This document shows, piece by piece, positions 1-60,999 of a stretch of DNA of 64,000 bases (within the stretch, counting starts at the first letter, position 1; every line of letters starts with the position of its first letter). Where the stretch lies: positions 62,001 through 126,000 of the forward strand of contig CAXHJY010001399.1 of NCBI GenBank assembly GCA_964016885.1, written 5' to 3'. Source of the DNA: Eledone cirrhosa (Eukaryota). The notes under the pieces are model-generated. The model ran no database searches. It was not told the origin of the DNA and saw only the letters and a program-made list of their open reading frames with translations. A program made the position numbers and the translations under genes.

Positions 1-287
1 ATAAAAGAGAAAACACAGGTAAGCATTAAGAGAAGGATTTTATCCAGGTATTTACGACCGTTTCATTGGTAAGTGCAACCTTATATTGCTATACTGCAAA
101 TAGCAGCAACTCAATTATAATTGTTGTTCACAGTCGAAATTTTCAAAATTTGGACTGTGAACAACAATTATAATTGAGTTGCTGCTATTTGCAGTATAGC
201 AATATAAGGTTGCACTTACCAATGAAACGGTCGTAAATACCTGGATAAAATCCTTCTCTTAATGCTTACCTGTGTTTTCTCTTTTAT
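1..287. repeat. Fold-back palindrome (135-bp arms), probable PLE-derived inverted terminal remnant abutting (TA)n
   Basis: 1-135 is the reverse complement of 153-287; contains GAAA-CGGTCG-TA (HHR 3' half); followed by (TA)n(GA)n; may extend beyond the window start. Confidence 0.85.
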
Positions 288-415
288 ATATATATATATA
301 TATATATATATATATATATATAGAGAGAGAGAGAGAGAGAGATATTTATATTTCATAATATAGAGAGATGTGTATATATACTATAATATAGAGAGTTAAG
401 TTTATATATTATGAT

Positions 416-1062
416 GGAAGAGACTATGTAGCCGGTCCCAGTAAAATAGACTCCCAGGCTATTTAACCGGTAAGAGTGTCAGACACCATGACTTGTGGAC
501 CAAGTTAAGACAATTTGAAATCTTTACAACCATCAATTGTTAAAAAACAAGTTTAAATCATTTAGTCATCATATTATAATTCTGCTTGTGTTTCGTCCGT
601 TTGTAACGTATGTTACACTTTAGTTACATACACACACGTCTACTGAGTTACATACACACACATCTACTGAGTTACATACACACACATCTACTGAGTTACA
701 TACAGACACACAGCTACTGAGTTTTATGGCTTAAGAATTTTAGCAGAAAGTCACGACCTGGGTTAAAGATAGTAGTCATGACTTGGGTAAGTAGTCACGA
801 CCTGGGTTAAAGATAGTAGTCACGACCTGGGTTAAAGATAGTAGTCATGAGTTCGGTAAGTAGTCACGACCTGGGTTAAAGATAGTAGTCATGACTTCGA
901 TAAGTAGTCACGACCTGGGTTCTAAAACATTATTTATTATTTAGTGGTAAAATAAGTTTCCAAGACAGCCGGCTACTGTTGCGTCTTTTTAGAGTTTACC
1001 GGTAAAATAAGCTTTAAAAGCATGTTTTCTATTTTGCCGGGACCGGCTATGTAGCCTATTCC
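416..1062. mobile_element. Mutator-like (MULE) MITE
   Basis: About 35-bp imperfect TIRs (GGAAGAGACTATGTAGCCGGTCCC... / ...GGGACCGGCTATGTAGCCTATTCC); perfect 9-bp TSD TATTATGAT at 407-415 and 1063-1071; short internal tandem repeats. Confidence 0.85.
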
Positions 1063-2718
1063 TATTATGATCTGCTTTTTGTTTTAAGGATATGGAAAAT
1101 GTTAAACGACTTGAACGCTGTGTCTCTCATATGAGTGTCTCACTGAACTAGCTGGTCTTTCATCTTTCTACTTCTCTTGATGTCCTACTGAGATGTAAAT
1201 TTGGTATATAAATATTTAAGTAACAGATACACGTTCATGTTAATTTATATTTGATTCCTTTTGCTTTACTAATTACAGAAGTGCTTTGGCAGTATTGGGG
1301 AAATTATTTCAAAACAACCCTTTGGTTTCTGGTTCCACTCTTAAGGAATTTCATGCTAAATCGTTTTAACCCAGATGCTCGCAAATTGTAATTTTCCCTT
1401 GCTTATTCAAACTGAGACACACGGGGGATTTTCTCTCTACTAATAGTCATATCGAAACATTCTTAAAATATCTTCGGATAGTCGTGTAGGGTTATTACAA
1501 AGTAAGGAATTACATATAAAATTTATTTGAGCTTATCGGTAGAATGTTAACTGTCTCTTTCGTGATTAGAAAACATCACTAAAAGGAATAACTGAAAAGA
1601 AACTGGTGGAAAAAAATGTCTTGTTGATTCTCCGTGGTTTTGTAACGTTATGAAAGTTCAGCTGCGGATGGTAAATTATAATAACATTTGCTATGATGAA
1701 AATTCACTAGCTTCTCTGCCGTTTCGTGTTTTTTCATTAGCTTTTCTAGTTCAAACATTCCACTTCGTCAAGGCTGCGAGAAAGTAATTATTTACGAACG
1801 TGAAAGCAAATCTCTTGTCATTTAGGAATGACTACAAATATAGTTTGGGAAAGATATTTCGATTGCAGAATCTAGCAATTTAAGCAGTCACTACTTCTTC
1901 CCCTGTAACTTACAGAATTCTGTCACCCAAGCAAAAATGTAGTAAAAATGTTCTCACTGATACCCAGATGGCAAGACCAACTTAGCTCAGACTAAAGTCT
2001 GTTACGATTAAGATTTCAATGTTGAATTTTATTTTAGATATTTTCATTAGTTTTAGAATAATGGCAGATAACTGCCAGAGGGGTTTTCTTTTTTGAATTA
2101 GATTTATCAAAGATGAATTCTTAAGACTGATGACAATATAATTAAGCTTTTGGTTATTTTAATTGAATTTAGTGCTAATTAATTCATAGCGAGTTTTTTA
2201 ACAAGCTGAGTCATATTCTACAGATCACTGTATATATACTTTACTTAATAATTACGATGTTAACATCACTACTTTTCTTTTATATGTGATACATAAACAC
2301 ATCCCATTCACAATGGTTATACCTCCAGATACACATAGACACCTTCATAAGCTATATAGACACCTCCCACCTATATATACTACCAGATGCACATAGACAC
2401 CCCCCCCCACCTACATACACAACTCCCACCTATATATACTGCCAAATATACATAGACACCTTCATAAACTATATACACACCTCCCCACTTATATACACAC
2501 CTCCAGATACACATACACACCTCCCCACCTATATATACGGTGATACACTAAAAATTAATAATATACATACATACACATACTCTCTATATACACATATACA
2601 CACCAGTATATACACATATATATATATTTAACGAAGGGATATTAGAAAGTAATTGTTAATGATGGGGTTAACATGGTTATTAGAAATGATTATAACAATA
2701 ATAAAGATTTAGTTTATA

Positions 2719-3074
2719 CTAGCAGATTTACCCGGCGTTGCTCGGGGTTTGAAATTATGCTAAGAATATACAGCTAGGAAGTAAAAGAAGAACATTATTT
2801 GTCCTCAACCTGTCAATATAAGCAGTCTCTTTATAAGGATTGTCAATAAAGTTGGTTATCTCCCTTACATCAATTTTGCTACCGATAATTTTGATATCGA
2901 TTTTTTATTGCTCAACGTGGGTCGATTTGAAAAATGTTTGTGATGTGACAATCTTAGCGACCTGTGCAACGTGCACAGAAAATTTGGTCAAATTCAGTTG
3001 GTAATTGTAAAAGCCTTAAGTATGCAAAGTTGTACACAGACACACACACATCCTCGCTTTTATATATATAAAGA
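2719..3074 (-). mobile_element. Non-autonomous Helitron
   Basis: Minus strand begins TC (3074) and ends CCCGAGCAACGCCGGG hairpin plus CTAG (2719); inserted between A and T. Confidence 0.8.
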
Positions 3075-3723
3075 TATAAAGGTTTACTTCACTTGAGTCA
3101 AAAAGAACAATAAACATATTACCACGAGTTGCAAAGGTTGACAATGTTATTTTTGTTGTTGGTTCATGAGGCTGGTGTAGTCTGCGACCAGGAGAGAGAG
3201 AGAGTAATGGTCTGTAATTGACTGTAGACCAGTGTGGCCCGTAGATAGCGGTGAATCTTTCACATAGCTTGTAATATCGTACTGCTCCGATCTCTCTGTA
3301 TGTCTGTAGACCTCTGGGGTCTGAAGGTAGAGGTGAATCTTTCACATGGCTGGTCTGTAGTCGTAGGGCTTAGATCTCTGTGTAAACGTGGGATGATACA
3401 GGCTTTATATACCTGTCGCTTTCTGAGGGGATAGCCCACGCATTAACCTGTTCACACCAAAAAGCTGGTGACTTAGAGTTTGACCTTTAGGTGTCACCCA
3501 AGATTCAAGGCGTAGGCAGATCTCGCTGTACACACCAGGTCTGAACAAAGAGGAACCAAACACCTACTGTCACTGCTCCCCCCCCCCCCCCATCTCTCAC
3601 TATTGTGAGCAAATGGAGGACTGGCGGCCCCACGGTCCCGGTGGACAGAATAGAGAAGGCCCCGGAGGATGGTGAGAGAGACACGCTAGAAGAGCCATTC
3701 CAGCTCACTGGGCTGAGATTAAT

Positions 3724-59423: not shown

Positions 59424-59715
59424 TTTTGATGATTTCGGTAGGTTTATGTACATTTTTTCTTCTAACTTTGATTTTGTACTTAATTGTGTATGGTTAACTA
59501 TATGTCTAGTCAATTTCTACAGGCTATCAGAAATACTAGGTAAATTTTGTGTAGCTGTGAGTCGCGGATAAAAAGCTATATCATTTATCTATTGTTTCTT
59601 CATAAGTATATTTTAAAATTATAGCCTCGTTTAAATGATTTTTTGTGTGGTTGATTTATGGTGATTGGGAGAAGAAATACTGTATATATTTTATCTAATG
59701 GTTCTATGGACTTAC

Positions 59716-60150
59716 TTTATATATATATATATATATTGTTATACTTTGGGAGGGTCATGTTGCCAATAAGAAACACACGCACCAGTTGCTTTCACTTCAA
59801 TTTATTATAATAAATTTATAAATTTAGGAATTTATAAATTTCCGATGGCGTAGGACAGAACAAAGGAGAGGCGCAAAAACAAAGAAAAGAATCCCCAGTC
59901 ACTGAAGAGGTCACAGAATGTGTGACGAAAGAACTTTGAATATATATTAGCAACCATCTGGTTGTGGAACCAACCAACCAACCGGAAATTTATAAATTCC
60001 TAAATTTATAAATTTATTATAATAAATTGAAGTGAAAGCAACTGGTGCGTGTGTTTCTTATTGGCAACATGACCCACCCAAAGTATAACAATATCGGTTT
60101 CAACACACGTTTTCAGATAAAGAATCTTGCTAAACAAATTCAGAAACGAA
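59716..60150. repeat. Inverted repeat with an HHR core in the spacer
   Basis: About 59714-59844 vs 59982-60095; related copy at 58705-58905; CTGAAGA-GGTCACA.TGTGAC-GAAA-GAAC-TT at 59902. Confidence 0.65.
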
Positions 60151-60197
60151 ATATGTATATATATATATATATATATATATATATATAATAACACACA

Positions 60198-60682
60198 TCT
60201 ATATATATAAAGTTGTAGTTCCTGTCTGTTTGTTTGTTGTTCACGAACACCTCCTATGGTTTTGCAGATAGACCACCATAACCATATATATTCTAGGGTA
60301 CTTAGATAAGTATATTTCATTTTAATCAAAGGGTTCCCGGAGGCACAAACCCCCACTGAAGATGTTTTCCCTTCGATTTATATGAAATTTAAACCATAGG
60401 TAAATGAGAGGATATGATGCCTATTCACAAAAGTTTTGAATTGATATTTTGAAAAAAATTATTTACAAGAAATAAAATAAGAATAAAATTTAATAACGTA
60501 ATTTTGATTTGATATATTACAAAAAATAATGTTTTCCAATTTTTCATGCATTACATTTTACATTGTGTAATATTGAAATGCAGAGTTTTTCTCCGTAAAT
60601 TATATCACTGATTTAAAATCAATCACCATTTTCTTACAAGAGCAATGTGTGAAACGCAGCAAGGCGCGGGTAATTCGGCTAG
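60198..60682 (+). mobile_element. Non-autonomous Helitron
   Basis: A-TC start; GC-rich subterminal segment and CTAG-T end. Confidence 0.65.
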
Positions 60683-60730
60683 TATATATATATATATATA
60701 TATATATATATATATATATATATATATATA

Positions 60731-60999
60731 CAGTATTTTCCGTTGTGTTGTAATATAAATATTACACACAGTAGATTATCAGCTCACGTAGAGTTTGCTC
60801 GACGGTTCCAGTTGTAGTTCCAAAAGTAATCCGGAGAAAAATAGAAAGATTTGAATGGATACAGTTTAGTTGAAAGGAATTTATTGACACGTGTTTCTAT
60901 AACAGTTACATAACCTATGTTTTAGGTTATGTAACTGTTATAGAAACACGTGTCAATAAATTCCTTTCAACTAAACTGTATCCATTCAAATCTTTCTAT
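60731..60999. repeat. Hairpin (77-bp arms) plus tail in (TA)n
   Basis: 60841-60917 / 60923-60999 with GAAA-CACGTG-TC; tail 60731-60840. Confidence 0.8.

Follow-up and report, generated by a model that had tools for sequence, protein, structure and literature searches.

The 64,000-nucleotide stretch of the Eledone cirrhosa genome analyzed here (assembly GCA_964016885.1, contig CAXHJY010001399.1, positions 62,001 to 126,000; hereafter the window) carries eleven long palindromes. These are almost certainly head-to-head pairs of 5′-truncated Penelope-like element (PLE) ends, the pseudo-long terminal repeats (pLTRs) of about 10 families, inserted in (TA)n tracts. With very few exceptions, the pairs that we mapped across the genome combine one end that stops at the pLTR boundary with one end that stops after a short tail beyond it. 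We consider it probable, at roughly 70%, that both ends of the cut target prime reverse transcription, one at each of these two sites, and that the far ends of the two complementary DNAs (cDNAs) are then joined.

Palindromes with a single tail

The assembly totals 3.0 Gb, and the window itself is eukaryotic DNA rich in A and T and full of repeats. A BLAST comparison of the window with itself located inverted repeats at 1-287 (arms 99% identical), 13529-13921, 16854-17186, 17329-17444, 39887-40369, 42129-42536, 49253-49676 (100%), 54399-55779, 59733-60094 and 60841-60999. Another, at 43442-43551, was absent from this list but is plain on inspection and was mapped separately. All eleven palindromes reported in a first-pass annotation are thereby present, none displaced by more than about 20 bp, and three shuffled versions of the window contained no comparable inverted repeat. 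In every case one arm reaches a (TA)n tract or stops a few bases from it, and the opposite arm extends through a tail. The one-sided tail described earlier is real, with a length of about 35 to 140 bp. For the palindrome at 1-287 the tail (about 140 bp) lies just left of the window, and for the pair at 59.7-60.2 kb it is the right side that carries it. Two further points needed amendment: the repeats beginning at 13529 and 16860, which had been taken as unrelated, are about 80% alike, leaving about 10 families and not 11; and tails end at a microsatellite in most cases, but not in that of the repeat at 16860.

Several insertions missing from that annotation appear to share the same mechanism, two of them without a palindrome (41014-41188 and 47280-47970) and two as solo tail-less ends (32165-32369 and 62908-63109). 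Inverted repeats beside (TA)n are also common elsewhere. Twenty arbitrary 10-kb stretches (200 kb) yielded 29 inverted repeats, with (TA)n on one side in 16, on both sides in none and on neither side in 13; the same scan of the window gave 12, divided 9, 0 and 3. The 16 one-sided repeats were counted as a class, and if most of them are of the PLE type, a rough extrapolation would place the number of such palindromes genome-wide on the order of 100,000.

Identity of the elements

Searches of the same genome with the arms of families A, D, F, I, P1, G and C returned dispersed copies with differing flanks, and copies of B, E and H were taken from the flanks of other loci. At one family A locus (L032) the order is pLTR, tail, leader, open reading frame (ORF), untranslated region, tail-less pLTR and (TA)n. 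A family F locus (L112) has the same order; the ORF is frameshifted in the former and uninterrupted in the latter, with 813 amino acids from the initiating Met. From these two layouts, the tail is the sequence that lies 3′ of the 5′ pLTR in full-length elements. The family A and F proteins carry reverse transcriptase (RT) motifs and, at the C terminus, a GIY-YIG endonuclease (EN) within one ORF linked to the repeat, and the tails of G, I and a P1-like copy run into similar ORF starts. Linkage to coding sequence therefore covers A and F in full, G, I and P1 by their ORF starts, and C and H-like copies by EN fragments, with B, D and E outside it. The earlier reading of the palindromes as PLE insertions that bear an inverted pLTR lacking the tail is supported. 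In profile searches, the Pfam GIY-YIG match in family A (E=0.0012) falls short of the Pfam cut-off, the family F protein has no significant Pfam match, and a sequence search of the PDB gave no match.

Most of the families are Hydra-type, and two (C and H) appear Neptune-like. The sequence marks of the Hydra clade given in PMC8557442 are shared by A and F. Family A has RMRWKA and ADKT, family F has the variant RVRWRA with SDKT, and the majority of 92 aligned relatives have RxRWKA and ADKT. By inspection, both A and F have a CxCX5C linker and C-terminal CxxC and CxH motifs and lack CCHH. The Hydra-type families have no CxxC between GIY and YIG, and insertion into (TA)n is itself a trait of the clade. 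The distance from pLTR to pLTR, 4.36 kb in A and 6.79 kb in F, does not agree with the descriptive trait that Hydra elements are generally under 3 kb. A Neptune label for A and F was dropped after comparison with these marks, and Naiad/Chlamys elements, which have an N-terminal EN, do not fit families whose EN is C-terminal.

Neptune-like EN pieces, of the kind with a CX2-5CxxC linker and cysteines between GIY and YIG, lie on the same strand upstream of family C at three loci (L189, L191 and L194), and Neptune-like EN/ORF sequence lies upstream of an H-like pLTR at two others (L220 and L221); all are fragments only. The ORF at L220 and L221 had been considered as that of family C, but it belongs to the H-like pLTR. 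Its Neptune-like reading frame in L220 includes an asparagine-rich N-terminal stretch (825-1730) that recalls the N-rich inserts described in PMC3846280. In family C (for example L197, 1750-1900) the arm/tail boundary is occupied by a variable, element-internal (AT)7-49 run, which makes the pLTR end itself a target-like repeat.

A full hammerhead ribozyme descriptor, for which cleavage is predicted from sequence, was matched by 5 of 11 families (A, A2, D, G and I), in each in the sense orientation alone, and by none of 2000 shuffles. Core words without a full match occur in E, F and H, and B, C and P1 have none. No hammerhead appeared among the 150 matches listed from an Rfam scan. In A and D, the predicted cleavage point coincides with neither an end nor the apex of the palindromes.

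Family F has a very high copy number and more than 100 open ORFs. All 150 scored loci are identical over the first 100 residues, and by hand count 117 of the 150 lie in open frames of 824-847 amino acids. Judged by its coding sequence, this family is young, with presumably autonomous copies elsewhere in the genome.

Two end sites and a rule of one each

We call the arm/tail boundary, which is the pLTR end, site 1 and the end of the tail site 2. Loci were merged into 174 stretches (914 kb), in which nine families, all except A2 and C, were mapped. There were 379 3′ ends abutting a microsatellite; site 1 accounts for 171 of them and site 2 for 188 (together 359 of 379), and the other 20 are elsewhere. 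Head-to-head pairs join one tail-less (site-1) end to one tailed (site-2) end in 110 of 112 cases (p about 1e-30 against 50:50), and in 84 of 86 (p about 5e-23, likewise) when the tail-biased family A is set aside. One of the two unmixed pairs is a BLAST over-extension; in the second, at the fold-back locus described below, a tailed arm lying farther outward closes the insertion. The layout spans sizes from about 200 bp to 12 kb.

This family-wide mapping of ends agrees with the earlier expectation of a fixed arm/tail boundary and a variable apex, and it supports the proposal that one integration mechanism is common to all families. The apexes are variable but clustered, at TCATATGA in family A, at one position in F and at an AATT/TTCC word in D. 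Because solo copies often start at these hot spots too, the hot spots suggest the position of the RNA 5′ end. At most unique junctions the two halves overlap by 0-5 bp or are separated by a few inserted bases.

Beside the two sites, a short helix recurs. Its pattern, NCTC…TN-GAGN, pairs NCTC and two further positions, with a two-base 3′ bulge before GAGN. The helix was seen first at site 2, where it lies 6-16 nt 3′ of the site in 7 of 7 leaders, and it lies 4-13 nt 3′ of site 1 in 8 of 11 families, being missing in C, D and H. Shuffled sequences give about 0.1 matches per set, and 5% of random genome positions match. The inner pairs covary between C-G and T-A, and the next position, which the pattern does not demand, has five pair types and is complementary in 15 of 15. 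Both sites also have a short (2-5 nt) TA match to the target. Runs of (TC)n or (TCTA)n are found at 18 of 70 tail ends and at none of 53 tail-less ends in families A and D (Fisher p 1.5e-5); such runs may reflect slippage during priming, or a TC seed may have grown into a microsatellite afterwards.

These features are most simply described by two primings. The endonuclease would cut both strands of a (TA)n tract, and each resulting 3′-OH would prime a cDNA on the element RNA, one at site 1 and the other at site 2. A 2-5 nt TA match would aid this step, and in the Hydra-type families the helix just 3′ of each site might dock the protein, perhaps with one subunit of a dimer per site. Both cDNAs would extend toward the RNA 5′ end, and their 3′ ends would be joined through short microhomology, or after snap-back, followed by fill-in. 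When both cDNAs run off the same RNA 5′ end, a near-perfect palindrome would result; if they stop unequally, either arm would gain a spacer; no palindrome would form if the site-2 cDNA were very short; and failure of one primer would give a solo copy.

A more specific version is possible, and we would put it slightly short of an even chance. Here Hydra-type PLEs would carry two copies of the docking helix so that a single ribonucleoprotein with two RTs captures both cut (TA)n ends and copies the same RNA region twice, using one site per end. Such programmed double-ended retrotransposition, with telomerase-like slippage at one end, would have produced palindromes on the order of 100,000 and could lead to duplication and inversion of flanking DNA.

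Evidence that separates the alternatives

Several alternatives can be compared through the relative lengths of the two arms. The 75 direct junctions comprise 39 scored as equal, 23 in which the tail-less arm is longer and 13 in which the tailed arm is longer, and among ten multi-kb family F pairs, with arms up to 6 kb, the tail-less arm is longer in seven and the tailed arm in three. In 11 of the 75 the partner consists of the tail only; a hairpin is missing from eight of these and short in the other three (family B). The insertions at 41014-41188 and 47280-47970 of the window are two further cases of this kind. Mismatch between arms is lower within loci than between them (1.9% versus 4.3% in A, 0.17% versus 1.25% in F and 0.65% versus 2.2% in G). 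Since the arms of one locus carry common subfamily variants, and since one and the same family D apex is found in copies of different subfamily genotype and of either polarity, most junctions appear to have been newly made from one template source. An apparent discordance between the arms of family D (31 of 122) proved to be mostly apex misalignment.

The main rival, although an unlikely one, is a switch to antisense RNA, following the antisense self-priming model of PMC3846280. Priming would occur at site 1 alone, and the RT would jump to an antisense transcript with its 5′ end at site 2. This route accounts for one end of each kind, for either arm being the longer and for tail-only partners, and the same source indicates that pLTRs may have two-way promoters. 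However, site-2 ends are precise and have slipped repeats and short tandem duplications of the sort that priming typically leaves, the helix is present 3′ of both sites in the sense orientation, and starts in vitro occur at both borders of the tail on sense RNA (PMC11167929).

Somewhat less probable is that one tail-primed cDNA folds back and copies itself, with EN or TA microhomology trimming the new strand at site 1; Craig et al. attribute the tail to EN-mediated resolution (PMC8557442). The first-pass annotation had considered fold-back of this kind, and the many near-symmetric apexes (39 of 75 scored equal), the short hairpins and repeated inversions at apexes, and the variants common to both arms agree with it. 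Nevertheless, tail-first fold-back needs a tailed arm at least as long as the tail-less arm and produces a palindrome every time, and hence cannot give a longer tail-less arm (23 of 75) or halves that share almost no sequence (8 of 75), so that a single folded cDNA is not supported as the main route. Solo tail-less copies directly on (TA)n and the presence of the same helix 3′ of both sites also speak against it. The tail-only partners largely refute fold-back as the sole route, provided that they did not arise by later deletion.

Fold-back does occur, in one clear case into flanking DNA. At G000:C1:30690900-30708200 (L142, L109, L110 and L143) a family F tail-less arm turns back, re-copying itself and 2.66 kb of flank, which is another Hydra-type ORF, now inverted. 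This fold-back, at which an assembly error is possible, started at the tail-less end and still required a separate short tailed arm, which it joins at (TA)n. We regard fold-back as secondary to two-site priming, and PLEs may create local inverted duplications.

Still less likely is the spread of palindromic master copies as units, with recombination between arms flipping the spacer. Identical apexes in several D and A loci, and a 5-bp junction that two family F loci have in common, one as the flipped version of the other, would fit such copies, but the remaining long family F junctions that were examined all differ, the identical D apexes lie on different subfamily genotypes, and recombination cannot flip a spacer between arms that have no sequence in common.

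Long palindromes are a known class of artefact, and the window lies on a small contig. That the structures arose by fold-back during assembly or library preparation is nevertheless hard to credit, since more than 100 loci, spread over many contigs, have fixed ends specific to their family, while their flanks differ, their tails are asymmetric and their arms have diverged. Among contigs assembled from other public runs, those of more than one run likewise have loose (TA)n ends at site 1 and at site 2, and the sequence joined to the apex position varies. Miniature inverted-repeat transposable elements (MITEs) or other DNA transposons with terminal inverted repeats inserted at TA, which the short, AT-rich inverted repeats beside TA resemble, are refuted by the RT/GIY-YIG ORF linkage, and further by the (TA)n counts of the arbitrary stretches (both sides in 0 of 29, one side in 16 of 29) and by arms that are 5′-truncated RT-element ends with sense hammerheads, one of which always extends into a tail; target duplications are unreadable inside (TA)n.

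Other observations weigh against priming at two sites, or at least against the strength of the counts. The loci are best BLAST matches and no random sample; two of them (L054 and L055) are one duplicated insertion, and a few long-range pairs may be chance neighbors. Six family D loci among the junctions scored equal are really asymmetric, three each way. The shared, flipped 5-bp apex junction of family F (L108/L136 and L137/L112, with different flanks) indicates that some junctions were inherited or flipped, and the evidence from the longer arm is therefore weaker for long arms. No contig from other runs bridges the family F apex by 31 letters on both sides. All of the evidence consists of genomic end products, with no intermediate seen, and apex sequence alone cannot separate intermolecular annealing from snap-back. 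The helix was defined on the same sequences used for counting, families C, D and H lack it, and the minimum-energy fold is mostly a different one, so that its structure rests on covariation. Finally, both strands used the same start sites in the Poseidon assay, without homology to the target (PMC11167929), and nothing in that assay would therefore enforce one end of each kind.

Relation to known systems

The architecture itself, an inverted pLTR plus a tail, has already been published (PMC3846280 and PMC8557442). Our insertions resemble those described there in the head-to-head 5′-truncated copy, the tail at one end, the palindromes at junctions and the bias toward microsatellites, although the published tails are 30-40 bp, compared with about 35-140 bp here. 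How inverted and tailed PLE ends form is a named open question in PMC8557442. The published explanations invoke antisense self-priming or EN-mediated resolution, whereas the present counts favor two primings. The rule of one end of each kind, the two-site double-priming model and the helix were not found in a literature search, which left subscription papers, including Arkhipova 2006, mostly outside its reach.

Two-site priming fits the in vitro behavior of Poseidon PAc (Frangieh et al. 2024, PMC11167929), in which both strands are cut and extended and two internal RT starts bracket the tail. That system is also similar in that RNA 3′ of the starts is needed and hammerhead cleavage does not set the ends. 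However, its two sites are not tied to an inverted structure in the available account, and its starts lack target homology, unlike the sites here with their 2-5 nt TA match. With the Hydra clade as described in PMC8557442, the families share RW(K/R), DKT, the CxCX5C linker, C-terminal CxxC and CxH, predicted hammerheads, the (TA)n target and the missing CxxC between GIY and YIG. They differ in the size of the units (4.4 kb in A and 6.8 kb in F, not under 3 kb), in a very high copy number with more than 100 open ORFs, and in the one-of-each rule and paired helix, both absent from the available portion of the published description.

Counts at the loci described here can separate published models, and each start site has next to it an RNA element that lends itself to testing. 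Twin priming by LINE-1 is similar in form, as two target ends prime two cDNAs that are joined head to head through microhomology. There the second primer is used at variable internal places and the cDNAs do not overlap, whereas in our insertions both starts are fixed and the cDNAs would overlap by up to 6 kb. A young family with more than 100 open ORFs also provides suitable starting material for reconstitution. Palindromes of this abundant kind can pass for MITEs or microRNA hairpins in annotation but are PLE ends; in the window, sub-threshold microRNA matches are found at 104-184, 42286-42379 and 49426-49503 among the Rfam matches listed.

Feature map of the window

Each pair in the window has its own arrangement of arms, tail and candidate RNA motifs. 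The family P1 pair (1-287) has its tailed arm on the minus strand and a plus-strand tail-less arm that stops at (TA)19. The Hydra-type family A pair (13434-13921) begins with a tail (13434-13528) that ends at (GA)21 and contains the helix motif (13485-13524); its tailed arm is on the minus strand, with a predicted hammerhead core at 13587-13629 (−), and meets the tail-less arm (13735-13921) at an apex joined via ATATG. Family A2, about 80% like A, occupies 16755-17186, with the tail at about 16755-16853, arms at 16854-17186, a putative hammerhead at 17082-17128 (+) and the helix motif at 16806-16845. A short family B pair follows (17252-17444; tail 17252-17328, arms 17329-17444, helix motif 17300-17323), and a second family B insertion at 42656-42821 has the order tail-less arm, short hairpin, tail. 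The family C pair, linked to Neptune-like EN, lies at 39840-40362, with a short tail (39840-39886) and an internal (AT)n at the arm/tail boundary, and has neither hammerhead nor helix motif.

The insertion at 41014-41188, read by eye, consists of a family A tail-less arm (−) and the last ~30 bp of a tail (+), with a 13-bp repeat and no palindrome. That at 47280-47970, also without a palindrome, has a family I tail-less arm of about 600 bp (−) and a tail-only piece at 47899-47970 (+). The family D pair (42079-42536; tail 42079-42134) has candidate hammerheads at 42254-42282 (−) and 42383-42411 (+), and the family E pair (43368-43551) has its tail at 43368-43441, arms at 43442-43551 and the helix motif at 43411-43429. 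The young Hydra-type family F is represented at 49119-49676 by a tail (49119-49252) with the helix motif (49168-49248) and a perfect 424-bp palindrome with its apex at 49464/5. Two solo tail-less ends of this family are on the plus strand (32165-32369 and 62908-63109), and the 5′ end of the first corresponds to the apex point of the palindrome. Family G, linked to a Hydra-type ORF start, extends over 54312-55779, with a tail (54312-54398), the helix motif (54370-54394), 436-bp arms, a complex spacer and a predicted hammerhead at 54445-54499 (−). Family H is present as a solo tailed copy at 58706-58913 (−) and as a pair at 59733-60154, in which a tail-less arm (59733-59844, −) faces a tailed arm (59902-60154, +) whose tail begins at 60095. 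The family I pair (60731-60999), also linked to a Hydra-type ORF start, has its tail at 60731-60840 and the helix motif at 60797-60837.

Additional pieces related to these families were noticed. A small inverted repeat (58287-58409) and a solo pLTR bearing a putative hammerhead (about 58470-58570), together within 58258-58570, are absent from the first-pass annotation. The tail end of a further Hydra-type family, with the same helix, lies at 48997-49078, and at 50110-50273 there is a solo pLTR, akin to family A, with a putative hammerhead.

The window also contains repeats of other kinds. Broken pieces of a non-LTR retrotransposon, in two related copies with RT (Pfam RVT_1) and zf-RVT matches, occupy 9059-12744 (−). 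Between long (TA)n tracts at 32990-33928 (+) lies the 3′ piece of an ORF from a long interspersed nuclear element, which we take to be CR1/L2-like and which has no Pfam match. Inverted pairs of a dispersed repeat, presumably similar to a short interspersed nuclear element, are found at 26357-27267 and 38272-39650 without the tail and (TA)n layout. Long arrays occur at 3893-7431, 14917-16267, 25377-26139, 27278-28130 and 44157-44917, built in that order of a 61-bp unit x 60, ACC x 458, a 58-bp unit x 13, a 118-bp unit x 7 and TTC-rich sequence.

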